Positions 1,257 through 55,246 are shown, counted from the stretch's first letter. The stretch: DNA of 64,000 nt from Candidatus Iainarchaeum sp. (GCA_021163505.1 JAGGVE010000034.1:11726-75725); one strand, 5' to 3'. Made by a program: numbers and translations. The notes: generated by a model not told the origin, from the sequence alone.

Positions 1257-1873
1257 CGTTCTAACTGCACATTATCCTTGATGCTTTTTCTAACAAATAT
1301 GCCTGGATAAATAAAACAGTTTTTCCCTATTATCACACCACAATTTATACAAGCGTTTACGCCTGTTTTTGTACCAGATTTTATAAAAGCGCCTAATTTG
1401 CGCCTCTTGGAATCAACCTTGTTGCCGTAAAAATCAACTTTAACATTACAATCATCGAATCTTAAGTTTGCTATTTTTGTGCCAGCGCCAAGGTTTACAT
1501 TTTCACCTATTACTGAGTCGCCAACATATGAGAAATGCGGAACGTTGGTTTTAGAAAGTATTATAGAGTTTTTTATTTCAGAGTTTGTGATCTTGCAGTT
1601 ATCAGCTATAAGAACATTGCCGCGCAGATATGCATTAGGGCCGATTGTGCAGTTTTCACCTATGTGGGCATTTCCTTCTATTCGCGAACCTGCTTTTATT
1701 ACAGAACCTTTACCGAGAAAAAGCTTTCCATCTATATGAACATTCTTTTCAACTATACCAAGAACCTTTTCTTCTACTTCGATACTCTCAAGTTCGTCTA
1801 TGAGCTTCCAGTACTCTGGCTTTTCTTCATCCATAAGCTTTTTTGCCTTTGAAAAAAGTTGTAAGCAATTCAT
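1253..1873 (-). CDS. hexapeptide-repeat (LbH) acetyltransferase, equivalent to the C-terminal domain of archaeal bifunctional GlmU-like sugar-1-P nucleotidylyl/acetyltransferases
   Basis: Repeated [LIV]GxxxxI hexapeptide pattern (IGENCTIGPNAYLRGNVLIADNCKI...IGENVNLGAGTKIANLRFD). Only 206 aa, so no nucleotidyltransferase domain. Lies directly downstream of glmM/glmS. Confidence 0.7.
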   Translation of the reverse strand: MNCLQLFSKAKKLMDEEKPEYWKLIDELESIEVEEKVLGIVEKNVHIDGKLFLGKGSVIKAGSRIEGNAHIGENCTIGPNAYLRGNVLIADNCKITNSEIKNSIILSKTNVPHFSYVGDSVIGENVNLGAGTKIANLRFDDCNVKVDFYGNKVDSKRRKLGAFIKSGTKTGVNACINCGVIIGKNCFIYPGIFVRKSIKDNVQLER

Positions 1874-3210
1874 GCTCCCAGCTCCTTTCTTATTGCACTA
1901 GCGATATTTTCAGCTAACTCCTTTATTTCCTTTTCGTTTCTGCCCTCTAACATGACCCTAGCCAATTGCTCTGTGCCAGAATAGCGAACAAAAACTCTAC
2001 CATTGTTAGCTAGCCTATGCTCCGCTTCTTTTATTGCTTTCTGCACCGTTCGCACTTTTTCGAACGGAATCTTTCCCTTTACCGGAATATTAATAAGTAT
2101 CTGTGGATATGGTTTGAATATCTTCAGCAGCTTGCTCAGTGGTTTTGAGCTTTCTTTCATTATGCGCACCAATTGTAGAGAAGCTATTATTGCATCCGGG
2201 CTCGCGCAGTAGTCTCCAAATAGTATATGCCCTGATTGTTCACCACCCAAATTAATGCCATGCTCGCGCATTGCGCTTGCAACGTACTTATCGCCAACGT
2301 CTGTGCGCAAAACATTTATGCCAAGCTCGTGCAGGCATTCATCTAAAGCAAGGTTGCTCATCTTTGTTGCAACTATCGCGTTTTTGGTCAGCAACCCTTT
2401 TTCGAACATGTACTTTGCAAATATTGCTAAAAGAGCATCGCCGCTTGCGATATTGCCATTCTCATCACAAACAACCAAGCGATCGGCATCGCCATCAAAC
2501 GCAATACCTAAATTGGCGTTCCTCTTTTTCACTTCTTTTTGCATCGCTTGCGGATTCAAAGCACCGCAATCCTTATTTATGTTCAGGCCGTTTGGCTTAA
2601 CATTCAAAACAAAAACTTCAGCGCCAAGTTCAGCAAACACTTTTGGAGCAATCGCATAGCTTGCGCCGTTAGCACAATCTATAACAACTCGCATACCTTC
2701 AAGCGAATAATTTTCAATAGTGTTTTTTACAAGCTCTATGTAACGACCGCGAGCATCATCTATTCTATAGGCTTTTCCTATCTCGTTTCCGTTTTCAGAA
2801 TCATTTAAATTTGCAAATATTTGTTCTATCTCCTGTTCAGCGTTTTCATCAAGCTTGTAGCCCCGCTCATTGAATATCTTTATGCCGTTGTGCTCAGCAG
2901 GATTATGGGAAGCACTTATAACAATGCCTGCATTGCAGTTTAGCGATTTTGTTAAATGTGACACAGCTGGAGTGGGCATTGGGCCCACAAGTAAAACATT
3001 AGCGCCTGCCGAAAGTAAGCCTGCTGTTAGAGCATATTCTATCATATAGCCGCTTAGCCTAGTGTCTTTACCTATGACAACGCTTGCTTTAGGATTTTTC
3101 CTTTTAAGGAATACTCCAAGTGATTTGCCAATCCTTACAACTGTTGTAGGTTCAATGGGAAACTTGTTTGCGATGCCACGAATTCCATCTGTGCCAAAAA
3201 GCTTTTCCAT
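1870..3210 (-). CDS. glmM: phosphoglucosamine mutase / phosphohexomutase
   Basis: N-terminal 'GTDGIRG' and active-site 'SASHNP' phosphoserine motif. 446 aa, typical alpha-D-phosphohexomutase length. Adjacent to glmS. Confidence 0.8.
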   Translation of the reverse strand: MEKLFGTDGIRGIANKFPIEPTTVVRIGKSLGVFLKRKNPKASVVIGKDTRLSGYMIEYALTAGLLSAGANVLLVGPMPTPAVSHLTKSLNCNAGIVISASHNPAEHNGIKIFNERGYKLDENAEQEIEQIFANLNDSENGNEIGKAYRIDDARGRYIELVKNTIENYSLEGMRVVIDCANGASYAIAPKVFAELGAEVFVLNVKPNGLNINKDCGALNPQAMQKEVKKRNANLGIAFDGDADRLVVCDENGNIASGDALLAIFAKYMFEKGLLTKNAIVATKMSNLALDECLHELGINVLRTDVGDKYVASAMREHGINLGGEQSGHILFGDYCASPDAIIASLQLVRIMKESSKPLSKLLKIFKPYPQILINIPVKGKIPFEKVRTVQKAIKEAEHRLANNGRVFVRYSGTEQLARVMLEGRNEKEIKELAENIASAIRKELGA

Positions 3211-3219
3211 AAAAACACC

Positions 3220-4977
3220 TCATTTAACAGTTACAGATTTTGCAAGATTCCTTGGCTTATCTGGGTCAAGATTGCGTGAAAGCGCCAGGTAATACGCCAG
3301 GAGCTGTATAGGGATTATTGACAGAATCGAAAACAATTTTGATTTTGGGATAGCAAAGAAGTAATCAAAGCATTTCGCTTTTTCAGAGGAAACACCAATT
3401 ATAAAGCCGCCTCTTGATTTCGCTTCTATCGCATTGGTTATGCTTTCATCGCTAGCATCAGAAGCAAACGCAATAACAGGAACATTCTTTTCAATCAAAG
3501 CGATTGTTCCATGCTTCAGTTCAGCTGAAGCAAAGCCTTCGGCATGAATATAGCTAACCTCCTTTATCTTCAGAGCTGCTTCTAAAGCGGTTACAGCACT
3601 TTCTCGCTTGCCTATTATAAATATACTCTTGGCGTTTTTCAATTTCTTAGCAAGCCTTTTAGCTTTGCTCTCATTTGTCTTTATAATCGTGGGCACAAGC
3701 CTTGCCGCTTCGCTCAATTCTTTCTTTGCTTGCTCGTGTTTCTTTATGAGTGAATTCGCAAGCAGATAAAGTACTGAAAGCTGAGCCAAATAGCTCTTTG
3801 TTGCAAGCACACATATTTCCGGGCCTGCATTCATCATTATAGTTGCATCTGCCAAGCGAGTTAAACTTGAACCAACAACATTAACAATACCTATTACACT
3901 CGCGCCTTTTTCCTTAGCGCTCTTTACAGCTTCAAGTATATCAGCGGTTTCGCCGCTCTGCGATAATGCAATAACAACTGTTCTTTTATTCACAAGGTTT
4001 AGAAAGTTTTGGAATTCAGAAGCAAGTATCGCATTAGCCTGAATTGAAGCTATGCTTGCAAAGAAATAGCTCCCAAACATGGCAGCATGCATGCTTGTTC
4101 CACAGCCGATTATGAAAACTTTTTCAGCTTGCTTTATGAGCTTTGTAACTTTTTCAATCAAAGCATTGCTTTGCAAAGAAGCATTTTTTATAGCCTGCTC
4201 CTGCTCATATATTTCCTTGAGCATGTAGTGCTCAAAGCCTCGCTTATCAGCTGAATGAAGCTTTAAATCAATCTTCTTAACGGGTTTATTAATCCGCTTT
4301 CCTGTTTCAATATCGTAAACCTTTGCTTTGCGATTAAATTCAATGAGCTCTGAGTCTTCTAAGAACATCGCTTTTGTTGCATAAGGAGCTATCGCCTGCA
4401 TATCACTAGCAAGCAAAAAAGTGCCATTAGCAAAACCAGCAACAAGAGGCGAGCCTCTCCTAGCGCCAATTAAAGAGTTGTGCAGCTCAGAAATTGCTAC
4501 AATAGCATAGCTTCCTTTCAAATGTAACAATGCTTTTCTAACAGACTCTCTAAAGCATAGGTTCCTGCTTAAGTAGAGCTCTATAAGCATAGGTATTACC
4601 TCTGTATCGGTTTCTGTTGAGAAGGAGAAGCCTTTCTTTGCTAAAAAGTCTCTCAGCTCTTGAAAGTTCTCAATGACGCCGTTATGCACTACGGCAATCT
4701 TTCCATTTTGTGATATATGTGGGTGAGCGTTCCTTACGGAAATTTTGCCGTGAGTGGCCCATCGCGTGTGACCTATCGCACAAGAGCCGTAAAACATTTT
4801 TTTTGGAAGCTTTGTGATCTTTCCTGTGCGTTTGTATATAAGCAAACCGTCATTTTTTACAGCAAGCCCCCAGCTATCATACCCTCTATAATCTAACCTT
4901 TTCAACCCCTCGTAAGCGATTTTGCCTGCATTGCTATTCTTGCAGAGCACACCTATTATTCCGCACATAAGAACCAC
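3220..4977 (-). CDS. glmS: glutamine--fructose-6-phosphate aminotransferase (isomerising)
   Basis: Starts 'MCGIIG' (Ntn-hydrolase Cys2). 585 aa with tandem SIS domains and conserved C-terminal '...KSVTVK'-type tail. Confidence 0.9.
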   Translation of the reverse strand: MVLMCGIIGVLCKNSNAGKIAYEGLKRLDYRGYDSWGLAVKNDGLLIYKRTGKITKLPKKMFYGSCAIGHTRWATHGKISVRNAHPHISQNGKIAVVHNGVIENFQELRDFLAKKGFSFSTETDTEVIPMLIELYLSRNLCFRESVRKALLHLKGSYAIVAISELHNSLIGARRGSPLVAGFANGTFLLASDMQAIAPYATKAMFLEDSELIEFNRKAKVYDIETGKRINKPVKKIDLKLHSADKRGFEHYMLKEIYEQEQAIKNASLQSNALIEKVTKLIKQAEKVFIIGCGTSMHAAMFGSYFFASIASIQANAILASEFQNFLNLVNKRTVVIALSQSGETADILEAVKSAKEKGASVIGIVNVVGSSLTRLADATIMMNAGPEICVLATKSYLAQLSVLYLLANSLIKKHEQAKKELSEAARLVPTIIKTNESKAKRLAKKLKNAKSIFIIGKRESAVTALEAALKIKEVSYIHAEGFASAELKHGTIALIEKNVPVIAFASDASDESITNAIEAKSRGGFIIGVSSEKAKCFDYFFAIPKSKLFSILSIIPIQLLAYYLALSRNLDPDKPRNLAKSVTVK

Positions 4978-5154
4978 AAAATTTGTGTATTAATAAATTC
5001 TCTTGCAAAGTTTTTAAATCCCGCTAAAAATTGTATAAAACCACTAAAAAAGAATTAATAAAATGTTAAGCAAAAAACGCGTTATAAATAAAAAGGTTTC
5101 TTAATACTATTAAAAAATATTTAATAATGGTAAAAATTCTATTATGGTGGTATA

Positions 5155-6108
5155 TTGTTAGCGCGCGTATCTTTTCAAAAGGACAACAAATACTTCATAT
5201 GTGACGCTGAAGTGCTTGAATCTATAGAAAAGATAAAACCTCTGCTTAGCGAAAAATGCTGGCTGATATTCAAGGAGCTCGCGAAAAAAGAGAGCTACCC
5301 TGCCAAGCTAGCGAAGAAGCTGAATATGCAGCAGCAGGAGGTTTATTATTATATAAACAAGCTTCGCAATGCTAACTTGGTTGAGCTTACAAAGCGCGAA
5401 GAAAAGCGCGGCGGCTTGGCAAAGTACTATAAAGTCAAAACAAGCTGCTTTGCGTTCATGCCTGATTTTGGCTCTGGAAGCGTAGCAAAGGTTCAAGGTA
5501 TTGAAAAGGGCATGCCAAAACCATTGCAAAAGTTCTTCCATCCGTTCATAAAGGATCAGGAGTTGAATGCTAAAATAGTTGTTGGCGCTCCGGATTCGCA
5601 TGGTGAATTTAAAGCGAGGGCAAGAGACGCGCACATAGCTGTAGAACTTGCTGGCTTTTTGGGAACACTGTGCAAAAGCATTCGTTATCCTTTCGTATTT
5701 TTGGATACTATGCTTAAGCACATAAGTCAAATAAACGATAATATCATTGTAATTGGTGGCCCCATAACAAACAAAACAAGCCGCGAAGCTAACGAACACC
5801 TTTCAGTGAAATTCGAACAGAAAAATGCCCACTGGTTAATAAAAAGCGAGAACTCAGGCAAGGAGTATACAGAGGATTCCGTAGGCATAATTGAAAAAAT
5901 CGCACATCCGTACTTTGATGACAAGGCAATACTCTTTCTTGCAGGTAAGAGAAATGCTGGCACCAAAGCAGCGATACTCGCTTTGATCCAAAACACTGAA
6001 GAGATAATAAAGCCGAATCGCTTTAACAAGGAAAACCATGCGCATGTTGTTGAAGGTCTCGATTTGGACAGTGACGGCTTAATAGACCATGTGGAGATTT
6101 TGGAGTAA
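5155..6108 (+). CDS. hypothetical protein with N-terminal ArsR-like winged HTH
   Basis: N-terminus 'WLIFKELAKKESYPAKLAKKLNMQQQEVYYYINKLRNANLVEL' is wHTH-like. C-terminal about 200 aa has no recognised motif. Confidence 0.4.
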   Translation: MLARVSFQKDNKYFICDAEVLESIEKIKPLLSEKCWLIFKELAKKESYPAKLAKKLNMQQQEVYYYINKLRNANLVELTKREEKRGGLAKYYKVKTSCFAFMPDFGSGSVAKVQGIEKGMPKPLQKFFHPFIKDQELNAKIVVGAPDSHGEFKARARDAHIAVELAGFLGTLCKSIRYPFVFLDTMLKHISQINDNIIVIGGPITNKTSREANEHLSVKFEQKNAHWLIKSENSGKEYTEDSVGIIEKIAHPYFDDKAILFLAGKRNAGTKAAILALIQNTEEIIKPNRFNKENHAHVVEGLDLDSDGLIDHVEILE

Positions 6109-6204
6109 TGCTCCCAATCAGCAAATGGATTTCATCAAAGAAAAAGAATAAAAAGCCTCATTTCCTATATTAAAAGAAGCTAATAACGTGAAAGCGTGGT
6201 TTAA

Positions 6205-7005
6205 ATGCTAAATGCTATGTATGGCTCTCTGAAAGCGGTTTTGAAAAAACCGCATGGCCTAATAATTCCACTTGTCGCATCGCTCTTGAGCGCGTATTTT
6301 TTCATACTGTTTATTCGCACAATTATAGAAATATTGGTTGATAATGCATTGTATGCAAATACTTTGCAGGAAAGTGTTTTTGCAACACTGATGTTTATTG
6401 CGAAGGTAAAATCAGCAGAGTTGCTAAAGATCTTTGCACTAGCGCTTGCCAACTCATGGGTCGGCATTTTTATTGGGATTTATTATTGTAAGTTCATAGC
6501 TTTGGTTGAAAAAGCCAGTACTTTCAGCAAGGCGGTTAAGTTTGCATTTAAATCATTATGGCATTCAATAGCTCTGCTCATAATCAGTATTATCTTCTTT
6601 GCAGCATTTGGTGTTGGTGCTTACATAATAATGTGGCTTTTCGGATTCAATTTTTTGCTGAGCTTTTTTGCACTACTCTTTCTCGGCTTGCTTATGGCCA
6701 TAGCTGGTTTGCGCCTTTTTATGTTTGCTCTGCCTGCGCTTGCATACGAAAAAATAAATGCAAGGAAAGCACTGCAGAGAAGCTGGCATTTTACTGAAGA
6801 GTTCTTCTGGCAATCATTGGCTTTAGCAATTGTTCTTACTTTTGTAGTCTTCCTTATATTCGCGCTTCAGCAATATATTCTGAACTTCTTTGACGATACG
6901 CTTGCAATACTAATAATTTATTCTCTTTTTAATAGCTTTGTAGTAGCATTTTCCTTTGGCACTCTCAGCATATACTATGCGGAGAGCCGCACTAAAGCTA
7001 AATGA
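6205..7005 (+). CDS. polytopic membrane protein (at least 6 predicted TM helices)
   Basis: Long hydrophobic stretches throughout. Stop overlaps the start region of the downstream SMC-like gene, suggesting translational coupling. Confidence 0.5.
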   Translation: MLNAMYGSLKAVLKKPHGLIIPLVASLLSAYFFILFIRTIIEILVDNALYANTLQESVFATLMFIAKVKSAELLKIFALALANSWVGIFIGIYYCKFIALVEKASTFSKAVKFAFKSLWHSIALLIISIIFFAAFGVGAYIIMWLFGFNFLLSFFALLFLGLLMAIAGLRLFMFALPALAYEKINARKALQRSWHFTEEFFWQSLALAIVLTFVVFLIFALQQYILNFFDDTLAILIIYSLFNSFVVAFSFGTLSIYYAESRTKAK

Positions 7006-9965
7006 CAGCGATTCCCATGATGGAGCTTAAAGAGCTAAAGCTTAAGAACTTCAAATCATTTAAAAAGGCGAAGATACCCTTTAAGAGAGGATTCACCGTT
7101 ATTGTAGGCCCCAACGGCTCTGGAAAAAGCAACATATTAGATGCTTTGCTCTTTGTGCTTGGCGAAACTTCAATGAAAAGTTTGCGAGCATCACGCATAA
7201 CAGACCTAATAAACAACGCTACGCAAGAGAATTATGGCAAAGTTGAACTTAAAATAAAGAAAGGTAAAGAAACAACAACGATAAGCAGGACAATTGATAG
7301 GAAAGGCAAAAGCATATGCAGAATAAACGATGAACGAAAATCACTAAGCGAGCTAACTTCACTTGTTTCTGAATTGGGGTTAAGGAACAGCTACAACTTT
7401 GTTGCACAAGGGGATGTAACACGGATTATTGAAATGAGTCCTGAACAAAGAAGAACTATAATCGATGAGCTTGCAGGCATAAAGGAGTTTGAGCTCAAGC
7501 GCGAAGAAGCTCAAAAAAATCTAGATAAAGTCAATGAAAAGATAAAAGATGTGAATCTAGTTTTACACGAGAGATTGGCAAGGCTTGAAGAGCTCGAAAA
7601 GGAACGCAAACAGGCTGAGCGCTATAAAGAGCTAACTGAGCGGAAGGATTCAATAAAAGCAACCATTCTGAAGAAAGAGATAGATGCTATTAATGCGGAA
7701 GTGAAAAAGGCAAAAGAAAAACTAAAGAAGAATCGCGAAGCTCTCGAAAAAAAGGAGAAAGAAGCAGAGAAAATAAAGAAGAAAATTGCTGATTTAGAAA
7801 ACAAAAACGAAGCGTTATCCAACAAAATCCTTGCTGAGCAAGAGAAAGCGTTTGAGGAATTTGGCAAACAGATAGAAGAGCTAAAAGCAGAGGATAGAGT
7901 TTTAGAGGAGCAGATACTCTCACATAGAACAATGCTCAGCAAACTTGAACAACAAGAGAATGAGCTTGCTGAAGAACTGAAGGCTCTGCTCGAGCAAAAG
8001 AGAGCTGAACGAAAAAGCGTTAGCGCTTATGAAAAAGAACTTGGCGAGGTGGAAAAAGAAAGCTTACGCCTTGAGCAAAGGCTCAGAGCAGTTGAGGAAG
8101 AAGCAAAAGATGTAGAGGAAAGAATTGCAAGCATAGAAGCTGAAATTAGCAAAATAGAAGCAAACAGAGAAACACTTCAAGAAAAACTTATGGAAAAACG
8201 CGCTGAGCATAGTGAAATCAAAAAAGAGAACGAGATGCGCCAGCTAAGAATAAAAGAGCTCAAAGAAAAAATTCAGAGTTTAAAAGATGAGCAAGAGAAA
8301 TTTGCTAAGTTGAAAACACATATAAAACTCCTAGAAAGTAAGAATTTGGAGGCAATGCTAAAGCAACTAAAAGAGCGCGAGAACGCGCTTATAGGAAAAG
8401 AGAAAGAGCTTTTAGCGAGAATTGCGCAAACAAGAGAGGCCATTGAAAAGCTAAAAAAGGCAAGCTCGTTGTGCCCTGTATGCGAAAGCACTTTAAACGA
8501 GCGTAAAAAAAAGATACTAATTGAAAAAAAGAATAATGAAATAAAACGCTTCGAAGCACAACACAAAGACATTATAAAAAGACTGAAAGAGATCACTGAG
8601 CAAATTGGTGCGGTGGAAAAAGAGATTGAAAAGCTAAATGAATTAAAAAGAGAGTATGCGCGCTATGAAAATGTAGCCAATGAGCTCAAAGAGCTTGCCA
8701 ACGCGTTAGAAAACGAGAAAGCCCAGATAAAAGATTTGGGAGGCTTAGAAAGAGAGATTGGAAATATTGAAAAAGAGCTTGAAAGGCTCAAAGCTGAAAA
8801 AGAATTAAAGCTTGCTGAGCTCAAAGAGCTTGAGGTAAGTGAGGAACTTTCGCTTAGAACAAAGGCAACAGAACTAAAGCACAGGAAAGAATTCCTGAAA
8901 AATAATATAAAACATGCCAAACAAAACATTGAGAAGCTCGAAAGCGATGCAAGCAGAATTAGGGCACGTATAGAATCTATTGAAAAGGAGAAAGAAGATA
9001 TTGCAAAGGAGATTGAGGAAAAAAGTGAAAAGATTGAAAAGCTCAAAGAAAAATTGCTGAAGCTTGAAACTGAAAAAACCAAAAAGAGCGAATCATTAAG
9101 AGAACTAATAAATAAAAAGGAAAGCATCGCTACCCAAACTGAAAAGATGAGGCATAGCTTAGATTCTTTCGAATCCGAGAAAAGGTTGCTTGAAAGAGAA
9201 ATAAATGAAGCGAGAGTCGATATAGGAAAGAATGAGGTAAGGCTAGCTGACCTGGAGGAGGAACTGAAAAGTTTTCAGGGAGTTAGGTTCTTGATGGACC
9301 TCAGCCTGAAAGAGCTAAAGAAAGAGTTGCCAAAGATTGAAAAGGAATTAGGATCAATAGGCCCTGTAAATCTGCGAGCAGCAGAATCGATAAAGGAAGA
9401 AGAAGAATCACTGCTTGAGGTGAAAGAAAAGATTCAAAAGCTCGAGCGAGAGAGAGATGCAGTAATAGATATGATAAATAAGATAGAAGTGAAGAAAAAG
9501 GAGGTATTTATGAATTGCTTTAATTCTATAAGGAAAAACTTTGCAGAGATGTTTTATAATTTCTTTGAAGGCAATGCAGAATTAAAACTTACTGACTATG
9601 AAGATCCGAGCAATGCCGGACTGATCATAGAAGCAAAGTATAAAGGAAAGGCGTTACAGTCGATTGATAGTATGAGCGGTGGTGAGAAATCACTTACAGC
9701 ATTGGCGTTCATATTTGCAATACTGCTATATAAGCCTGCTCCGCTCTATGTTTTTGATGAAGCAGATGCTGCATTAGATGAGATAAACTCAGCAAAGGTC
9801 GCAAAAGCAATAAAGGAGTTCTCAAAGAAAGCGCAGATAATTGCAATAACTCACAACCATAATATAATAAGAGATGCTGACCAAATAATTGGGGTTACTC
9901 TGGCAAAGGACAAGTCAAGCGTTATTGGGCTGGACCTCAAGCAGAAGCTCTTGGAGAACGCTTAG
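7002..9965 (+). CDS. SMC-family ABC ATPase with a central CxxC zinc-hook instead of a hinge (SMC-like/Rad50-like hybrid)
   Basis: N-terminal head 'FKSFKKAKIPFKRGFTVIVGPNGSGKSNILDALLFVLGE...LRASRITDLI' has Walker A and an SMC-type Q-loop region. C-terminal head 'MSGGEKSLTALAFIFAILLYKPAPLYVFDEADAALD...IIAITHN' carries the SMC signature, Walker B and D-loop. About 650 aa of K/E-rich coiled coil lie between them, with 'CPVC' at aa 491-494 (nt 8472-8483), exactly mid-protein. Likely true start is MELKELKL at about 7020. Confidence 0.75.
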   Translation: MTAIPMMELKELKLKNFKSFKKAKIPFKRGFTVIVGPNGSGKSNILDALLFVLGETSMKSLRASRITDLINNATQENYGKVELKIKKGKETTTISRTIDRKGKSICRINDERKSLSELTSLVSELGLRNSYNFVAQGDVTRIIEMSPEQRRTIIDELAGIKEFELKREEAQKNLDKVNEKIKDVNLVLHERLARLEELEKERKQAERYKELTERKDSIKATILKKEIDAINAEVKKAKEKLKKNREALEKKEKEAEKIKKKIADLENKNEALSNKILAEQEKAFEEFGKQIEELKAEDRVLEEQILSHRTMLSKLEQQENELAEELKALLEQKRAERKSVSAYEKELGEVEKESLRLEQRLRAVEEEAKDVEERIASIEAEISKIEANRETLQEKLMEKRAEHSEIKKENEMRQLRIKELKEKIQSLKDEQEKFAKLKTHIKLLESKNLEAMLKQLKERENALIGKEKELLARIAQTREAIEKLKKASSLCPVCESTLNERKKKILIEKKNNEIKRFEAQHKDIIKRLKEITEQIGAVEKEIEKLNELKREYARYENVANELKELANALENEKAQIKDLGGLEREIGNIEKELERLKAEKELKLAELKELEVSEELSLRTKATELKHRKEFLKNNIKHAKQNIEKLESDASRIRARIESIEKEKEDIAKEIEEKSEKIEKLKEKLLKLETEKTKKSESLRELINKKESIATQTEKMRHSLDSFESEKRLLEREINEARVDIGKNEVRLADLEEELKSFQGVRFLMDLSLKELKKELPKIEKELGSIGPVNLRAAESIKEEEESLLEVKEKIQKLERERDAVIDMINKIEVKKKEVFMNCFNSIRKNFAEMFYNFFEGNAELKLTDYEDPSNAGLIIEAKYKGKALQSIDSMSGGEKSLTALAFIFAILLYKPAPLYVFDEADAALDEINSAKVAKAIKEFSKKAQIIAITHNHNIIRDADQIIGVTLAKDKSSVIGLDLKQKLLENA

Positions 9966-49980: not shown

Positions 49981-50409
49981 ATGAGGCCGATTGCTATGAA
50001 GCTCTGCAGCGCTTGCCTGCTTGGAATAAAGTGTAGGTATGATGGTAAAGACAATTTGAATGAAAGGGTAATTGAATTAGCTAAAAGGGAAAAGTTGATT
50101 CCTGTTTGTCCTGAACAGCTAGGTGGCTTACCTACACCGAGAGAGCCAGCTGAAATTCAAGGCAACAGGGTTGTAACTTACTCTGGAAAGGATGTTACAG
50201 AATATTTTGAAAGGGGCGCGAAGAAGGTTCTAAAAATTGCAAAATTGCTTGGAATTAAAGAAGCTATTTTAAAGCAAAAAAGCCCTTCATGCGGCTCTGG
50301 CAAGATTTACGATGGAACATTTTCCGGTAGAATTATTGAAGGCGACGGAATAACCGCTCGACTCTTGAAGAAGAATGGGATTAGAGTAATATCAGAAGAG
50401 GAATTATAA
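49981..50409 (+). CDS. DUF523-family protein (TudS-like 2-thiouracil desulfidase family)
   Basis: 'LCSACLLGIKCRYDG...IPVCPEQLGGLPTPREPAEI' conserved Cys pattern of DUF523. Confidence 0.65.
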   Translation: MRPIAMKLCSACLLGIKCRYDGKDNLNERVIELAKREKLIPVCPEQLGGLPTPREPAEIQGNRVVTYSGKDVTEYFERGAKKVLKIAKLLGIKEAILKQKSPSCGSGKIYDGTFSGRIIEGDGITARLLKKNGIRVISEEEL

Positions 50410-51897
50410 TTCTGCAAAGCTTAACTTTCCAACTGAAAGCTTCCAAAGGATTTCTGGCAGCTCGGCAATTTTGGCTCTTTTTTGGGCCATTGTGTCGCGC
50501 TCGCGAATTGTAACAGTATCATCTTGCATTGTATCGTAATCTATTGTAATTGCATATGGCACGCCTATCTCATCTACGCGAGCGTAGCGCCTGCCAATAG
50601 AGCCTTTCTTATCGTAAAGGCATGAAAACTTATAGTCTTCAAGAAGATCAAACACTTGCTTGGCTTTTTCTGGCAGACCATTTTTGTTTACCAAAGGAAA
50701 TACTGCAACGAAGTAAGGGGCTAACTGAGGCACTAAAGCTAAATACAATCGCTCATCTTTGCCGCGCTTTTCTTTTCTAATCGCTTGGTCAAGCACAACA
50801 TAGAAAGTTCTATCGATGCCTGCGGAGAGCTCAAACACATGCGGAATAAATGCCTTGCCTTCTTCTTTAGCGCTCAAATCCTTTTTGCTACCTTTAGAAT
50901 GGCCCTTCAAATCATAATCTGTTCTGTAGTTGCATGCTACCAGTTCAATCCAGCCCAAATCGGTTAAAACTTCGAAGTCCCAAGTTTCTTTTGCATAGAA
51001 CGCTCTTTCTTCGCTACTCAACTCGCGGAAGCGAATTTTTTCTAAAGCTATGCCACATTTTTCGTAGAACTGCTGCAAGCGCGCAAGCCAGTATGCAATA
51101 AGCTTTCCTGAAACTACGCGTTGCTTTACTGCCTGCTCGCAGCTTATTTCTTCAATTGCGCCCCTATCTAATCTCTGCAACCTTAGCTTATAGTTTGCTA
51201 TCTCGCTGAAATTTCTTATTTCGTTTATTTTATCTGGATTGAAAAATATTTCTATTTCCATCTGCCCAAGCTCGCGCTCCCTAAGCAGGGTTTGTTTTGG
51301 TGCAATTTCGTTGCGAAAAGATGAGCCAGCCTGCGCAATGCCTAAAGGCAATCCTTCTCTGCTGGCTTTATAAAGGCGCGGGAAATCGAGAAAAATATTT
51401 TGACATGTTTCTGGCCTCAGGAAGCATTCTTGATTCTGTGTAGCGCCAATAAGCACGCGCATCATCATATTGAAAAGTCTTGCTTCGCTTAGTTCGCCTT
51501 TGCACTTTGGGCATCTTATTTTATGCTCTGCTAAAAGTGCATTTAGTTCCTCAATGGATTTAGATTCAGGGATATGCTTAGCGATTTTTTCTTCTACCAG
51601 TTTATCCGCTCTAAAAAGCGCATGGCATTTTTTGCATTGAACTACTGGATCGTTAAATGATCTTAAATGGCCTGAAGCTTCAAACACTTCCTTAGGCAGA
51701 ATAACAGAGCCCTTTATTTCTAACAGGCGCTCTTTTTCCACCAGCTCTTTACGCCAGAAGTTGATTATGTTGTTTCTTATTCTGACACCTATCGGCCCAA
51801 ACTCCCAGAAGCCTGCTGGTTTGCTTGCGTATATCTCTGCGGTAGGAAAAAATAGCTGCCTTCTGAACGCAAGGTTCTGCAATTCATCTCTAGGCAT
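50404..51897 (-). CDS. glyS: glycyl-tRNA synthetase (archaeal/eukaryal alpha2 type)
   Basis: N-terminus 'FRRQLFFPTAEIYASKPAGFWEFGPIGVRIRNNIINFW' resembles 'RRGFxxPSxEIYGGxAGFxDYGPLG'. 'LEASGHLRSFNDPVVQCKKCHALFRAD'. C-terminal anticodon-binding 'VAVFPLVNKNGLPEKAKQVFDLL'. Confidence 0.8.
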   Translation of the reverse strand: MPRDELQNLAFRRQLFFPTAEIYASKPAGFWEFGPIGVRIRNNIINFWRKELVEKERLLEIKGSVILPKEVFEASGHLRSFNDPVVQCKKCHALFRADKLVEEKIAKHIPESKSIEELNALLAEHKIRCPKCKGELSEARLFNMMMRVLIGATQNQECFLRPETCQNIFLDFPRLYKASREGLPLGIAQAGSSFRNEIAPKQTLLRERELGQMEIEIFFNPDKINEIRNFSEIANYKLRLQRLDRGAIEEISCEQAVKQRVVSGKLIAYWLARLQQFYEKCGIALEKIRFRELSSEERAFYAKETWDFEVLTDLGWIELVACNYRTDYDLKGHSKGSKKDLSAKEEGKAFIPHVFELSAGIDRTFYVVLDQAIRKEKRGKDERLYLALVPQLAPYFVAVFPLVNKNGLPEKAKQVFDLLEDYKFSCLYDKKGSIGRRYARVDEIGVPYAITIDYDTMQDDTVTIRERDTMAQKRAKIAELPEILWKLSVGKLSFAEL

Positions 51898-51971
51898 TGC
51901 TCACACCAACCAATACTAAAAATTTGCATAAATAGTGTTTTAAAGGGTTTCTTGGGCTTCTATTTTTAAAG

Positions 51972-52778
51972 GTGCTTTTCATGGTGAACATTGAAAGTTT
52001 GCGTAAAAAAGTTATCGAAAAAACAAAGATGCAGATAAAAGAACGCCTAGCCGGTAAAGAAGTGCATATAATAAAGGCCGTTAATACGCTTGAGGACCTT
52101 GATTTGGTATTCAATATGCTCTTTGAGGATGTTAGGGATTGGTATTCATTGCATTTCCCGGAGCTTTTTAGATTAGTGAAAGAACCGGAAAAGAGCTTAG
52201 CGCTTATTGCGAACCTTACTTTGCGTAAGAAGTTTGTGAAGGAAGAAATAGTCAAGTACTATGCAAATGAAGAAGTAGCAGCAGAACTAGAGAAAAAAGC
52301 TAAGGAAAGCACTGGTGCTGATTTGAACGAAGAGCAAGCAAAGGTTATAATACAGCTTGCAGAAAAAGCTCTTGAGTTGAAGAAATATAGGGATATGTTA
52401 GCTGGTTTTATTGAAAAGGAGATGCAAAGCAAGCTACCCAATCTTACAAAGATTGCAGGCCCGCTTTTAGGAGCTCGCTTATTGCGAGAGGCCAAATCAT
52501 TGCAAAAGCTCGCGTTTATGCCTTCTTCCACAATACAGGTGATTGGAGCGGAAAAGGCATTGTTCAAGCATCTGCGCAAGGGCACTAAGCCACCAAAGCA
52601 TGGAATAATATTCCAGCATCCTTTGCTTAGAAAAGTGAAAAGAGAGAATCGCGGTAAGATGGCCAGAGCATTAGCAAACAAAATAAGCTTAGCAATAAAA
52701 GAAGACTACTTTGGCAAGAAGGATATAAGTGATAAGGTAGTTAGGGAGCTCGAGGAAAAGGCAAGGCTATTGAGTTAG
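51972..52778 (+). CDS. nop5: Nop5/Nop56-family box C/D snoRNP protein, short form (Nop domain only)
   Basis: 'WYSLHFPEL' start of Nop domain. 'GAEKALFKHLRKGTKPPKHGIIFQHPLL...ENRGKMARALANKISLAIKEDYF'. Only about 45 aa precede the Nop domain, so there is no N-terminal fibrillarin-binding domain or long coiled coil. Confidence 0.75.
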   Translation: MLFMVNIESLRKKVIEKTKMQIKERLAGKEVHIIKAVNTLEDLDLVFNMLFEDVRDWYSLHFPELFRLVKEPEKSLALIANLTLRKKFVKEEIVKYYANEEVAAELEKKAKESTGADLNEEQAKVIIQLAEKALELKKYRDMLAGFIEKEMQSKLPNLTKIAGPLLGARLLREAKSLQKLAFMPSSTIQVIGAEKALFKHLRKGTKPPKHGIIFQHPLLRKVKRENRGKMARALANKISLAIKEDYFGKKDISDKVVRELEEKARLLS

Positions 52779-53150
52779 CTTTTTCTCAATATTTTCTAAC
52801 CTTTTTTCGATCTCGTTTAGTTTTTTCAAAATTTCATTCATTGCATCTTCAACTATTTCATGCGGTGGTTTTGGGTGATGCAATGCAGGTATCGGCCTGC
52901 GCTCGCGAAGGAACTTTAAAACTGACCTATCTCTAAGCTGATAAAATACCTTTCCCTCTTCGCTTGAAGAAGAAACAAGGCCTGCATTTTCAAGAATTTT
53001 GAGATGAAAATCTACTGTTTGTGGGGCTCGTTTTAGATGTCCAGCTATTTCGCTCAAGTACTTCTTCCCGGTGGTGATACTATAGTAAGACCACCTGTGC
53101 CGCCATATGCAAGACATTATGGTGGAGAACCATGGAGCGAACCAACCCAT
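52767..53150 (-). CDS. ArsR-like winged-helix regulator with C-terminal coiled coil
   Basis: 'KYLSEIAGHLKRAPQTVDFHLKILENAGLVSSSSEEGKVFYQL'. 127 aa. Confidence 0.5.
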   Translation of the reverse strand: MGWFAPWFSTIMSCIWRHRWSYYSITTGKKYLSEIAGHLKRAPQTVDFHLKILENAGLVSSSSEEGKVFYQLRDRSVLKFLRERRPIPALHHPKPPHEIVEDAMNEILKKLNEIEKRLENIEKKLTQ

Positions 53151-53286
53151 ACAGACATTATGGATACACTAAATGAACTAAGAGAAAGGCTAGAAAGAAT
53201 TGAAGATATTTTAAGGAGACGATGAAGCTAAAAAGTGGGGCCAAGCACACCCAAGTTTTTCTTTTTTTAATTTTGAATGCGCACAA

Positions 53287-53742
53287 CTATCTTCTCTTGT
53301 ATCTCAGTTTTTTAATATCGAATCTAGGAAGGGCTGATTTTAAAATTATCTTATTTCTCGCATAGTCAAAAGTTACAACAAAATTAGAAAGAAAAGGAGT
53401 GCCTAAGATTATATCTTTATGAAGAGGATTCTCCACAGGCACTATAACATCGAAAAGTTCTTTAAATTGGCTATGGCCTTTTCTGATTTCTATGTATATT
53501 TTAGCTGTCTTGAAACGAAACTCTGTTTCTGCACCTTGACAAACATCAACTTTTTTAGAAAGCTCAAGCCCAAAATATTCGGCTATATCTTGTGGAATAT
53601 AAACAACATCAGAACCAGTATCCAGTACGGCAATAAAATCTTTATTTAGCCCTCCATAGCTTAGTGTTGTGGGTATCTTTGGTCTTAATGTCCAATGTGT
53701 TTCATCTATTTTTTCTCTTTTAAATTTAAAAGTAAATTTCAT
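53287..53742 (-). CDS. retropepsin-like (clan AA) aspartic protease, single domain
   Basis: 'AVLDTGSDVVYIP' (DTG active-site loop) and C-terminal 'IILGTPFLSNFVVTFDY' (hydrophobic-G-R/T-D-F-L flap/dimer motif). 151 aa. Confidence 0.6.
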   Translation of the reverse strand: MKFTFKFKREKIDETHWTLRPKIPTTLSYGGLNKDFIAVLDTGSDVVYIPQDIAEYFGLELSKKVDVCQGAETEFRFKTAKIYIEIRKGHSQFKELFDVIVPVENPLHKDIILGTPFLSNFVVTFDYARNKIILKSALPRFDIKKLRYKRR

Positions 53743-53746
53743 GTTC

Positions 53747-53950
53747 TCACAAGACGTGAATTGCCTGATCGGGCACTCTTGCGAATAAGGCCCTTACACC
53801 AGGAAACTTTTTATCAACTTTTTCCGCCACTTCTTTGAACGATTTTCCAAAAGCAATTACGTTATTATTGTAAATAGCCACCCATTTGCCCTGATATTTG
53901 CTCAAATCAGCTTTTGCATAGTATTCGTAGTTGTTCATTTTTCCACCCAT
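53747..53950 (-). CDS. small protein with GKWVA motif (DUF5678-like, frequent partner of archaeal retropepsin-like proteases)
   Basis: 67 aa 'KYQGKWVAIYNNNVIAFGKSFKEVAEKV...'. Four nt upstream of the protease gene. Confidence 0.4.
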   Translation of the reverse strand: MGGKMNNYEYYAKADLSKYQGKWVAIYNNNVIAFGKSFKEVAEKVDKKFPGVRALFARVPDQAIHVL

Positions 53951-53985
53951 TTAATAATTGATGTAACATAACTTATATTTAAATA

Positions 53986-54666
53986 TTGGGGGTTTTAGTT
54001 TTTATGCGTGAAATCTTTCCTGGAATTTATAAGTGGCGCAATAAGCTCTGGACAAAAAACCTTGTGCCTGGTCAGCAGGTTTATGGTGAACGTTTAGCTA
54101 CTTTTAATGACATTGAGTACCGCGAATGGAATCCCTTTCGCTCGAAGCTAGCAGCAGCAATAGTTAAAAAGCTAAAGCATTTGCCTTTAAGAGCTGGCTC
54201 CAGGGTTCTGTATCTTGGTATTGCTGAAGGAACAACTGCTTCACATATAAGCGATATCATTGGCAAAGAAGGCGTAATTTTTGGAGTAGACATAAGCGAG
54301 AAGTGCTTGGCGAAATTATTGCAGATATGCGAAGCGCGTAAAAATATAATTCCTGTGTTAGCAGATGCAAATAAGCCAGAAAGCTATGAAGCTTATGTAA
54401 AAGAGATAAAACCACAAATTCTTTACCAAGATGTTTCGCAGAAGAATCAGGCGGAAATATTCAATAAAAATGCGAGGCTTTTTTTAAAAAAAGGCGCTTA
54501 CGGTTTGCTAGCGTTGAAAGCGCCAAGCATAAGTTCAACTAAAAAACCAAGCAGAGTGTTTAGGAAGGAAGAAAAAAAGCTGTTAGAGGAATTCGAAATA
54601 ATTGAAAAAATTCCTTTGAGCCCGTTTGAAAAAAAGCACAGGTTTTATTTGCTTAGGAAAAGGTGA
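53986..54666 (+). CDS. flpA: fibrillarin-like rRNA/tRNA 2'-O-methyltransferase
   Basis: 'EYREWNPFRSKLAAAI', 'VLYLGIAEGTTASHISDIIG', 'VIFGVDIS', 'NIIPVLADANKPESY'. 226 aa. Confidence 0.9.
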   Translation: MGVLVFMREIFPGIYKWRNKLWTKNLVPGQQVYGERLATFNDIEYREWNPFRSKLAAAIVKKLKHLPLRAGSRVLYLGIAEGTTASHISDIIGKEGVIFGVDISEKCLAKLLQICEARKNIIPVLADANKPESYEAYVKEIKPQILYQDVSQKNQAEIFNKNARLFLKKGAYGLLALKAPSISSTKKPSRVFRKEEKKLLEEFEIIEKIPLSPFEKKHRFYLLRKR

Positions 54667-55246
54667 TCTTTTGGAGCTTGGCAGGAAGTTAGTGCATATA
54701 GTATTTGGGGCACTTATCTTCTTTGTAACGTATTTTTATGGTGCTTACTCACTAGCTGCTCTGTGCTCTGTAGCTTTACTTTTGGGTATTCCATTGGCCT
54801 TACTAATGAAATCCAGGGTTGAATTTCCCGTATTTTCGTTAGCGGTTGAGCTCTTTGGGAGAGAGCGTGAGAAGCTACCAGGCAAAGGGGTTTTCATGTT
54901 TTTTGCAGGCGCTCTTTTAGCAAGCTTAATAGCCATATTTGTAAATAATAACGCAATCGCTTATTTGGCTCTATTGCCTGCGATATTAGGGGATGGATTA
55001 GCAACAATTATGGGAAAACGCTTTGGCAGACATAGAATTGTAAAGCATAAGAGCGTTGAAGGCAGTGCTGCCTTTTTCTTTGCATCTTTTATAGCCCTAT
55101 TTTTAGCTTCTAATAGGTTATATGCAGCATTTATCGTTGCCCTGCTTGCAAGCATTGCAGAGTTATTGCCAATAGACGACAATCTTATTTTGCCACCATT
55201 TTCAGCAGTAATTTTATACATAACCTATTTTTTTAACTTCCTCTAA
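54626..55246 (+). CDS. CTP-transferase (CdsA) superfamily membrane protein, CDP-archaeol-synthase/dolichol-kinase-like
   Basis: 'GKRFGRHRIVKHKSVEGSAAFFFASF' signature of the CDS/CarS family. Five TM. The 5' end overlaps flpA, so the start is probably an internal codon. Confidence 0.5.
   Translation: MKKSTGFICLGKGDLLELGRKLVHIVFGALIFFVTYFYGAYSLAALCSVALLLGIPLALLMKSRVEFPVFSLAVELFGREREKLPGKGVFMFFAGALLASLIAIFVNNNAIAYLALLPAILGDGLATIMGKRFGRHRIVKHKSVEGSAAFFFASFIALFLASNRLYAAFIVALLASIAELLPIDDNLILPPFSAVILYITYFFNFL

Follow-up and report, generated by a model that had tools for sequence, protein, structure and literature searches.

A DUF5678–retropepsin-like protease gene pair as an accessory unit in the variable nop5-flpA spacer of an Iainarchaeum-type archaeon

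The 64,000-nucleotide stretch of DNA analysed here (the window) is from a DPANN archaeon of the Candidatus Iainarchaeum type; its flpA product shares 96% identity with that of Ca. Iainarchaeum MAG JAFCEU010000029. Within it, nop5 and flpA show the same orientation, order and conserved synteny as in the canonical archaeal nop5-flpA operon, but they are separated by a 1,225-bp spacer with four ORFs, mostly on the opposite strand, where the canonical operon has none (Table 1). The surrounding gene order, GlyRS, nop5, a gap, flpA, a membrane ORF and NrdD, is common to relatives. Five metagenome contigs of this species, independent of one another, have an identical arrangement, which excludes an assembly artefact. 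The original prediction for this DNA placed three minus-strand ORFs between nop5 and flpA, and all three lie where it put them; its description of the spacer as 1.2 kb of opposite-strand DNA, however, overlooked a small plus-strand ORF. The most likely start of flpA is the ATG at 54004; an exact look-up of a version with a TTG start matched nothing.

Table 1. Features of the nop5-flpA region, in window coordinates.
Feature	Position	Strand	Basis
nop5 (aNOP56/58)	51972-52778	+	268 aa; Pfam Nop 2.5e-57
ArsR-type wHTH ORF with coiled-coil tail, N-terminally truncated	52767-53150	-	HTH_5 2.1e-08
Small coiled-coil ORF remnant ('...EPTHTDIMDTLNELRERLERIEDILRRR')	53037-53225 (homologous ~53088-53225)	+	similarity to L022 and L015 ORFs
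Deletion junction, approximate	53078-53090		all-frame comparison with L015, L022 and L092
Block of raised nucleotide identity to L006	53250-54080		sliding-window identity and alignment
Oligo-T tract T5CT7AAT4	53254-53275	+ (nop5/flpA strand)	read from sequence
Single-domain retropepsin-like aspartic protease	53287-53742	-	151 aa; Pfam and NCBIfam matches
DUF5678 small protein	53747-53938 (open to 53950)	-	63 aa; PF18929 2.4e-12
Divergent intergenic region, 65 bp, between DUF5678 and flpA starts	53939-54003		sequence
flpA (fibrillarin)	54004-54666 (alternative start 53986)	+	220 aa; Pfam Fibrillarin 4.4e-79; NCBIfam NF003276 266 bits

Adjacency of nop5 and flpA, which had been taken to be almost always the case, is not universal in this lineage. 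Among 68 loci from Iainarchaeota relatives that carry both genes in the same orientation, the spacer, measured from ORF ends, is ≤150 bp in only 37 and >400 bp in 27, and in 14 of the 17 closest relatives it exceeds 500 bp and contains genes. Its cargo differs from relative to relative, and includes a matrixin (Peptidase_M10; M10 below), a HepT-like RNase, a full-length ArsR and AIM24. In Iainarchaeota the nop5-flpA spacer has long been a variable site at which accessory genes repeatedly land, and in the window its content is a mosaic of two units that are unrelated to each other. Two further differences from the canonical operon are the oligo-T tract on the nop5/flpA strand, which is likely to be an archaeal terminator between the two genes, and a TATA-like element belonging to flpA itself; nop5 and flpA are probably separate transcription units here. 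A search of positions 51800-54800 against Rfam returned no RNA, even at E≤1.

The larger gene of the first unit encodes a retropepsin-like protease with the 'LDTGSD' and 'ILGTPFL' motifs that were originally noticed. The first contains the catalytic D41-T42-G43-S44, of which D41 and G43 are invariant in a 104-sequence alignment of the family; the second, on whose presence the original prediction had staked the assignment, contains I112-L113-G114, with G114 conserved in more than 90% of the same alignment. The AF2 model (pLDDT 94.4) has a retropepsin fold, and its top Foldseek matches in the PDB are HTLV-1 PR (1.6e-5), Rickettsia APRc (2.5e-5), RSV PR, FIV PR and Ddi1 (E range 1.6e-5 to 8e-4). 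The suggested HMM searches placed the protein just above the cut-off for Asp_protease_2 (24.6 bits; cut-off 24.3) and just below that for gag-asp_proteas (27.5; cut-off 28.2). It is not a member of the nearest curated subfamily, TIGR03698 clan_AA_DTGF (25.0 bits; cut-off 57.35). Word-indexed searches gave only 6 matches to the protease and 2 to its small partner, and profile and exhaustive representative searches were added; at E≤1e-3 the protease family comprises about 520 representatives (50%-identity clusters drawn from 1.8 billion proteins), nearly all of ~140 aa. A single lobe with a single Asp implies that such a protein would form a homodimer.

The retroviral proteases (HTLV-1, RSV and FIV), APRc and the RVP domain of Ddi1 share with this protein the D-T/S-G-S/A and hydrophobic-hydrophobic-Gly motifs, and its predicted fold matches theirs. 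It differs in being a stand-alone, cytoplasmic protein without a polyprotein; it has neither the UBL/UBA domains of Ddi1 nor the membrane anchor of APRc, and the model adds to the common fold ~20 N-terminal residues, predicted to form added strands, and a basic C-terminal tail. Unlike any of these proteases, it is preceded by a DUF5678 gene in every locus recovered. Prokaryotic stand-alone retropepsin-like proteases are almost unstudied. By its description, the Saci_1895 family of Sulfolobales is comparable: these are small, stand-alone archaeal retropepsin-domain proteins in a defence-gene context, tied to type III CRISPR loci, but they are ~100 aa long and CRISPR-associated, and a DUF5678 partner is not reported for them (PMC3973734). 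No cas genes or CRISPR features were found in the surroundings examined of the DUF5678-protease pair.

Upstream of the protease gene, the original prediction described a 67-aa partner at a distance of 4 nt. The gap between its stop codon and the protease ATG is indeed 4 nt, and the protein belongs to the DUF5678 family (PF18929; 46.9 bits, cut-off 23.2, profile positions 3-38 of 49), but its most likely start, as in all homologues, is the ATG at 53938 (MNNYEYY), which gives 63 aa. An alignment of 26 sequences shows the conserved motifs 'GKWVA', 'SFKEVAEKVDK' and 'RVPEK.AQIL'. The AF2 model (pLDDT 87.7) has an α-β-β-α-β topology with a C-terminal tail of low pLDDT that is nevertheless conserved in the alignment, and shows no recognisable DNA-binding fold of the RHH, HTH, AbrB or Phd type. 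Its best viral fold matches are Pandoravirus DUF5678 proteins; a literature search on DUF5678 returned one unrelated mention among 8 million papers. A GGGTGG Shine-Dalgarno-like motif stands ahead of the DUF5678 ATG, and the only TATA-like element in the region between DUF5678 and flpA is a 12-nt palindrome, ATATTTAAATAT (53975-53986). This element is kept in L006 and L092, loci that have DUF5678, and is missing in L010, L015 and L022, which do not. It may well act as a promoter.

In every independent locus recovered, the protease gene directly follows DUF5678, with a gap of 4-12 nt or an overlap. In addition to the window, the pair was found at L006, L008/L093, L009, L097, L098, L106, L107, L110 and L027, and at L007, where it is cut by the contig end. 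In all, about 11 genomic contexts, unrelated to one another, contain it; a metagenome scan with the DUF5678 profile yielded only 6 loci. Pairwise identities of the two proteins are correlated (r=0.83, Mantel p=0.026). The invariant unit is a two-gene operon, DUF5678 followed by the protease and transcribed away from flpA, in agreement with the proposal that the two travel together as an accessory module.

This unit behaves like an exchangeable module. Its neighbours are often PIN/VapC, MazE or AbiEii modules, and a PDDEXK nuclease and a PolB-like gene are found in other contexts. L010, an equally close relative, lacks the pair, as do most Iainarchaeota loci, and the GC content of the pair is 0.32-0.36 compared with ~0.40-0.43 in the flanks. 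Scanning viral contigs with the DUF5678 profile gave no loci, and no relatives of the module were found in phage and plasmid collections. At the locus itself we found no integrase or tRNA target, and no recombinase in the spacer; the flanking repeats that it had been suggested to look for amount to ≤28 nt at 70-88% identity, no more than expected by chance.

Of the second unit, a divergent pair formed by an ArsR-type regulator gene and an ORF for a 50-60-aa coiled-coil protein, only a remnant is left, in which a deletion has fused the two head-to-head. The winged helix-turn-helix (wHTH) protein with a coiled-coil tail had been correctly recognised as ArsR-type, but it is truncated at the N-terminus and has lost helix 1. 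Only ~52767-53080 is homologous to intact relatives; codons 1-24 are an antisense read-through of the small plus-strand ORF, with tblastn homology beginning at residue 25, and the match to HTH_5 (PF01022) covers profile positions 13-47 only, whereas the L015 homologue matches 1-47. The helix 1 sequence 'ALSSPVRREIL' is absent in every frame of the window. The homologous part (residues 25-127) contains no Cys and hence no Cys metal-sensing site (α3/α3N CXC), and the ORF scores 33.8 against NCBIfam HTH_metalloreg, with a cut-off of 55. Its dN/dS relative to L092 is 0.09. The small ORF overlaps it antisense by 114 nt, is weakly similar to its C-terminal tail, and is 52% identical over 44 aa and 50% identical over 42 aa to ORFs of 56 and 50 aa in L022 and L015, respectively; in both loci that ORF immediately precedes flpA and is oriented divergently to ArsR. 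Lost in the deletion were codons 1 to ~30 of ArsR, the promoter region shared by the divergent pair, and the beginning of the small ORF.

The arrangement in the window is in part shared with relatives, a finding that the original prediction had named as one that would count against it. In two sister lineages the pair sits, or sat, at the same site: L006/L091 have flpA, DUF5678, a split protease, M10 and nop5 there, the protease being frameshifted in an A-run, and L092 has flpA, DUF5678, ArsR and nop5, the protease having been deleted and DUF5678 left intact. A block comprising the protease, DUF5678, the putative promoter and approximately the first 80 nt of flpA is 85-92% identical between the window and L006, compared with 55-86% in the flanks. 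At four-fold sites, divergence in the DUF5678/protease/ArsR block is about 2.5-fold lower than in the core genes on either side, with 31% vs 54% of sites differing in one comparison (Fisher p=3e-4) and 26% vs 53% in the other (p=5e-4), on only 53-68 sites; composition-corrected distances are 0.41 vs 0.99 and 0.33 vs 0.94. Likewise, NG86 dS is 0.49-0.63 in the block and 1.2-2.4 or saturated in the flanks. This lower divergence suggests exchange between lineages. The claim of recent mobility thus fares unevenly: the lower synonymous divergence supports some mobility, but not a recent insertion into an operon, since the spacer is usually occupied. We consider it probable that a mosaic block in a variable slot was swapped between related lineages by recombination after their split, and that the exchanged block was then eroded by deletions.

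The same data could be explained without horizontal exchange if the ancestor's spacer held M10, ArsR, the small ORF and the pair, differential deletions produced the present arrangements, and the low dS reflected constraint or a low mutation rate in short AT-rich genes. DPANN genomes are deletion-prone, the window and L092 both show deletion junctions directly, and DUF5678 is as diverged between L006 and L092 as their core genes are; moreover, promoter and antisense elements lie across parts of the block, and constraint from these could partly account for its low synonymous divergence. However, a 2.4-2.8-fold lower distance persists after composition correction and is seen in three genes and two comparisons (p ~4e-4 each). 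In addition, M10 shows no reduction, having diverged between L006 and L010 as much as core genes, and L010 and deeper outgroups have M10 only. We regard descent by deletion without exchange as improbable.

What an exchangeable DUF5678-protease pair might do is suggested by its resemblance to type II toxin-antitoxin modules such as VapBC, which are common in archaea. Such modules are two-gene operons in which the small gene comes first and is joined to the second by a 4-nt gap or an overlap; they are patchily distributed among close relatives and lie near other toxin-antitoxin genes, and their effector is found lesioned with the small gene intact, all as seen for the pair. HepT toxins occupy the nop5-flpA spacer in other relatives. 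The three robust lesions that we recovered are all in the protease and none is in DUF5678, an asymmetry that is not significant because the protease is 2.3 times longer (chance p ~0.33). An apparent protease frameshift in L102, which is a scaffold N-run, was left out of this count, as was a 1-nt deletion in L105 that rests on 2-3x coverage. The pair differs from type II modules in that its small protein has no fold of the DNA-binding kind and its effector is a putative aspartic protease. To our knowledge, no established toxin-antitoxin family has an aspartic protease as effector, and a literature search for such an effector returned only one unrelated mention. PADLOC gave marginal, non-significant matches for the protease (PDC-M52B, residues 13-55, E 0.003; PDC-M08B, residues 39-132, E 0.012), and PDC-M08 and PDC-M52 are themselves unvalidated candidate systems; no model matched DUF5678.

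In the mechanism that we propose tentatively, and to which we give somewhat less than even chances, DUF5678 would bind the protease as its cognate partner, and the conserved, predicted-disordered C-terminal tail of DUF5678 would hold the dimeric enzyme inactive. Once DUF5678 was lost, the enzyme would be able to cut proteins of the cell or of viruses, which would make the module toxin-antitoxin or abortive-infection-like with an aspartic protease as its effector. Such a module would add aspartic proteases to the known repertoire of toxin and defence effectors. Taken as a whole, the combination of exchange at the locus with restraint of the protease by DUF5678 is the explanation that we favour, by a modest measure. 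A more ambitious version is doubtful: that the pair represents an undescribed archaeal, mainly DPANN, class of toxin-antitoxin or abortive-infection systems, with a dimeric protease inhibited by the tail of a small α/β protein and, in this lineage, a palindromic bidirectional TATA common to flpA that would wire its expression to the rRNA 2'-O-methylation machinery.

Alternatively, the pair could serve regulated proteolysis in the cell, linked to ribosome biogenesis or translation, with DUF5678 as an adaptor or chaperone that brings substrates to the protease or controls their access, in the manner of Ddi1 or ClpS, and the adjacency to flpA reflecting co-regulation instead of selfish mobility. 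Several pairs do adjoin translation genes, and in L027 the pair forms one tight operon with nop5-flpA. A housekeeping link and chance fit this adjacency equally well, chance because so much of a DPANN genome is given over to informational genes. Against a housekeeping role stand the absence of the pair from L010 and most Iainarchaeota loci, the frameshifted or deleted protease of the sister lineages, and the other contexts of the pair, namely toxin-antitoxin islands, the PDDEXK nuclease and the PolB-like gene; the similarity to ClpS is below significance. This reading is unlikely in our judgement.

Less credible again is the view that in this genome the module has no function and is decaying. 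The adjoining ArsR and small ORF are scarred and the protease carries lesions in relatives, but both ORFs of the pair are intact in all five contigs of this species, and every catalytic and family-invariant residue is present. The block genes have dN/dS values of 0.04-0.19, a sign of purifying selection. Least probable, and largely refuted, is the original view of a single mobile three-gene cassette (ArsR, protease and small protein) recently inserted into an intact, essential nop5-flpA operon: the three genes do all run opposite to nop5 and flpA within 1.2 kb, in a block less diverged than its flanks, but ArsR has a separate history, occurring without the pair in the L015 and L022 spacers and missing from the pair in L006 and in at least 8 further contexts, it is deletion-truncated and divided from the protease by the plus-strand ORF remnant, the spacer is filled in most relatives, and terminal repeats were not found.

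The Nop5 protein at this locus is itself unusual. Whereas Nop5 of the canonical operon has a fibrillarin-binding N-terminal domain, the protein here consists of the coiled-coil and Nop domains only, and aligns with NCBIfam aNOP56 (NF011121) over profile positions 118-372 of 417 (286 bits; cut-off 452). GlyRS begins 75 bp upstream of nop5 on the other strand, which leaves no room for the missing domain, and a separate copy of it is not encoded anywhere in the 64-kb window. We considered whether loss of the domain had relaxed the linkage of nop5 and flpA, and dropped this idea because lineages that keep the domain have split loci too. How box C/D RNPs assemble around a Nop5 without its usual fibrillarin-binding domain is a puzzle of its own. 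In some other lineages, Nop5 has a long low-complexity C-terminal tail.

The DNA separating nop5 from flpA, the fibrillarin gene, is better described as a mosaic within a long-standing slot for accessory genes than as a fresh cassette insertion, its parts being an intact, exchangeable module (a DUF5678 small-protein gene and a retropepsin-like protease gene) and a deletion-scarred remnant of an ArsR gene and a small ORF. The ORFs of the original prediction were borne out by ORF calls in the window and by an identical gene arrangement in five metagenome contigs of the same species, and their family assignments proved right by Pfam; the small plus-strand ORF had been overlooked. Homologues place the DUF5678 start at ATG 53938, giving 63 aa, and that of flpA at ATG 54004; four nucleotides lie between the DUF5678 stop and the protease ATG. 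Judging by its fibrillarin, which is 96% identical to that of MAG JAFCEU010000029, the source organism is a Candidatus Iainarchaeum-type DPANN archaeon.

Features of the window and of related loci (L-numbers, from related genomes or metagenomes)
Source	Feature	Position	Strand	Remarks
Window	GlyRS	50404-51897	-	upstream bound of region described
Window	nop5	51972-52778	+	Pfam Nop 2.5e-57
Window	ArsR-like ORF	52767-53150	-	Pfam HTH_5 2.1e-8
Window	small-ORF homologue	53037-53225	+	52% identity over 44 aa to small ORF of L022
Window	deletion junction	near 53078-53090		ArsR/small ORF
Window	identity block (85-92%, nucleotide)	about 53250 to about 54080		starts 37 nt past protease stop, ends inside flpA
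Window	oligo-T tract	53254-53275	nop5 strand	
Window	protease, 151 aa	53287-53742	-	Asp_protease_2 24.6 bits; gag-asp_proteas 27.5 bits
Window	equivalent of L006/L091 frameshift	~53555		L006 ~7630; L091 ~6390
Window	DUF5678 ORF	53747-53950	-	Pfam DUF5678 2.4e-12
Window	ATATTTAAATAT palindrome	53975-53986		
Window	flpA	53986/54004-54666	+	Pfam Fibrillarin 4.4e-79
Window	hydrophobic multi-pass ORF, 206 aa	54626-55246	+	overlaps flpA 3' end by 41 nt; syntenic in most relatives; no Pfam family matched
Window	NrdD	55360-57492	+	downstream bound of region described
L014	three highly basic ORFs (224, 288, 375 aa)	1006-3764		
L022	homologues of first two L014 basic ORFs (219, 280 aa)	4699-6259		
L018	HepT-like (HEPN) RNase toxin	5972-6574		
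L025	HepT-like (HEPN) RNase toxin	5970-6572		
L030	HepT-like (HEPN) RNase toxin	5146-5757		
L015	small ORF	6806-6958		
L022	small ORF	6789-6959		
L027	DUF5678/protease pair and nop5-flpA	5371-7654		

We compared the spacer in 68 related genome loci with nop5 and flpA in the same orientation. It measures 150 bp or less in 37, 150-400 bp in 4, and more than 400 bp, with genes inside, in 27; 14 of the 17 closest relatives have more than 500 bp of spacer genes. Thus, a split is normal for this lineage, contrary to the predicted fresh insertion into an otherwise adjacent operon. The cargo comprises a same-strand, matrixin-like Peptidase_M10 (L006, L010, L011, L013, L016, L017, L019, L020), HepT-like toxins, ArsR with a small ORF (L015, L022), AIM24 (L061, L063, L065, L076), and the highly basic ORFs of L014 and L022, which may be another mobile unit. 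The smallest basic ORF has a weak match to sigma-70 region 4 or transposase-type HTH domains. In the window, the TATA-like, 12-nt perfect palindrome ATATTTAAATAT precedes the ATG of flpA by 18-29 nt and, on the other strand, that of DUF5678 by 37-48 nt; no other TATA-like element occurs between these divergent starts. It is conserved only in lineages carrying DUF5678 and is a candidate bidirectional archaeal promoter; together with the oligo-T tract, it implies that nop5 and flpA would be separately transcribed here.

By its motifs and predicted fold, the window protease is a genuine retropepsin-type enzyme. It scores 24.6 bits against the Pfam cut-off of 24.3 for Asp_protease_2 and 27.5 against 28.2 for gag-asp_proteas, and for TIGR03698, the closest curated subfamily, its 25 bits fall short of the required 57. 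Searched exhaustively with a profile, 1.84 billion representative proteins yielded 520 relatives at E<=1e-3, of which 82 reach E<=1e-10; with few exceptions they stand alone and measure about 140 aa. NCBI annotates one family member, from a Woesearchaeota archaeon, as retropepsin-like. Among 104 aligned sequences, D41 and G43 never vary, and conservation exceeds 90% at P21, A54, G114, F118, F121, and F125; G114 is the glycine of the 'ILG' motif, so the original retropepsin-like call holds, second motif included. Most members have DSGA or DSGS, and the window subfamily DTGS. The AlphaFold model is confident (pLDDT 94.4), with HTLV-1 protease, Rickettsia APRc, the RSV and FIV proteases, and the Ddi1 RVP domain as best PDB matches.

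DUF5678 and the protease are the conserved unit of the locus. In every independent locus recovered via either protein, DUF5678 lies directly upstream on the same strand, separated by 4-12 nt or joined by an ATGA overlap (contexts counted: the window, L006/L091, L008/L093-96/L108, L009, L097, L098-104, L105/L106, L107, L110, L027, and L007, whose small gene is cut by the contig end). The surrounding genes differ from locus to locus and include PIN/VapC and MazE modules, AbiEii/DUF6088, a nitroreductase, a PDDEXK nuclease, rpl1-rpl10-rpl12, rps10-EF1A, and putative AlaRS-like and PolB-like genes, read from N-terminal sequences alone. This constant pairing among varied neighbours agrees with the earlier view of such two-gene units as accessory modules. 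Pairwise identities of one protein track those of the other (r=0.83, Mantel p=0.026), with much of the signal driven by the outlier L027. We found nothing related in viral contigs, phages, or plasmids, and PADLOC gave only marginal matches to the protease. The best viral structural neighbours of the DUF5678 model are Pandoravirus proteins annotated DUF5678, so the domain is also present in giant viruses of amoebae. In L027, from another Iainarchaeota genome, a divergent pair with an ATGA overlap directly precedes nop5-flpA, at a distance of 2 nt, and makes up one tight, co-directional operon with them; a 59-aa CxxC zinc-ribbon ORF comes before the pair. This is a second configuration of the recurrent association with nop5/flpA.

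Counting the window, four sister lineages are compared here, and the other three stand at about the same distance from it: L010 (GlyRS 85% identical; spacer with M10 only), L006/L091 (84%; M10 plus the pair, protease frameshifted), and L092 (84%; DUF5678 and ArsR). Although L006 and L092 are each other's sister lineage (93% identical in GlyRS), one carries M10 and the other ArsR; between L006 and L010, M10 has diverged as much as core genes. Between the window and L006 or L092, NG86 dS is 0.49-0.63 for spacer genes and 1.2-2.4 or saturated for flanks. Four-fold sites, though few in the spacer, differ at 21/68 there vs 347/641 in the flanks in one comparison (Fisher p=3e-4) and at 14/53 vs 138/261 in the other (p=5e-4); composition-corrected distances are 0.41 vs 0.99 and 0.33 vs 0.94. 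Against L092, the identity block also takes in the ArsR body, as far as about 52820. On the simplest account, an accessory block was exchanged between related lineages after their divergence and then eroded by deletions; extra constraint from overlapping regulatory elements could add to the low synonymous divergence. Some form of the predicted mobility, probably inter-lineage exchange, is supported by this lower divergence and not by flanking repeats: because no terminal repeats, recombinase, or tRNA target were found, homologous recombination through conserved flanks is more likely than transposition.

Intact ArsR homologues in L015 and L022 (76% and 70% identity, 128-129 aa) match the whole HTH_5 profile, the 'ALSSPVRREILLFLG' helix included, and are convergent with nop5 and divergent from a plus-strand, 50-56-aa ORF ('...EPTHAELM.AI.E..ERL.RIERMLG') that stops about 45 nt before flpA. 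Members of this small-ORF family (50-62 aa) match no Pfam family and resemble the C-terminal coiled-coil tail of the adjoining ArsR protein; the divergent arrangement suggests a regulator and partner pair. The window ArsR matches its homologues only from residue 25 (HTH_5 positions 13-47); the 24 codons before that ('MGWFAPWF...') are antisense to the small ORF, and the helix-1 sequence is absent from the window in all frames. From these features, a deletion joined the two genes head-to-head, at the cost of the promoter region that they shared and of both N-termini. In L092, an independent deletion, stretching from the stop codon of DUF5678 to codon 12 of ArsR, has taken out the protease and small ORF. 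The surviving ArsR body of the window remains subject to purifying selection (dN/dS 0.09 vs L092), so it may still be expressed, for example by read-through. With ArsR present without the pair in L015/L022, the pair present without ArsR in L006, and the window ArsR deletion-truncated, the predicted three-gene cassette dissolves, and the ArsR gene is, from these arrangements, not part of the DUF5678-protease unit.

Tentatively, the pair can be read as a module resembling toxin-antitoxin or abortive-infection systems, where DUF5678 would bind the dimeric protease and restrain it. This is consistent with the operon architecture, the strict pairing, the patchy presence among close relatives, toxin-antitoxin-rich neighbourhoods (the spacer elsewhere houses HepT toxins), signs that lineages have exchanged the block, dN/dS values of 0.04-0.19 that show both genes to be under purifying selection, and a conserved DUF5678 tail predicted to be disordered. 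Moreover, three robust lesions all strike the protease and leave DUF5678 intact: the L006/L091 frameshift, which lies in an A-run (A8 vs A6 in the window) and occurs in two assemblies, the L092 deletion, and the in-frame loss from L008 of 27 nt encoding 'DHKDVILGT'. A8-type runs are prone to transcriptional or translational slippage, so the L006/L091 gene may not be fully dead. The asymmetry of the lesions is not significant (p about 0.33), given a protease gene 2.3 times the length of its partner. DUF5678 also lacks the DNA-binding fold of an antitoxin, no match to a known defence or toxin-antitoxin model was obtained, and several pairs adjoin translation genes. The tight L027 operon likewise speaks against such a module and leaves room for a housekeeping role in regulated proteolysis, which we nevertheless regard as unlikely. 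Small retropepsin-domain proteins in Sulfolobales CRISPR type III loci offer a precedent for defence-linked archaeal retropepsins (PMC3973734). The DUF5678-retropepsin module is an as yet uncharacterised variant on a familiar system type, open to simple experiment.

Nop5 is 264-277 aa in the window and all Iainarchaeota-type relatives (L006-L033), without the N-terminal domain to which fibrillarin is bound in archaeal complexes of known structure; no separate copy of this domain was found in the rest of the 64-kb window or, in relatives, within 7 kb of nop5. Woesearchaeota-type loci retain a fused 94-125-aa domain ('YIYSN.IGSFVF'). Five related DPANN loci (L071, L072, L058, L075, and L077) encode a Nop5 of only about 195-213 aa; tblastn matches skip the central coiled-coil region, and these proteins appear to be variants without the coiled coil.
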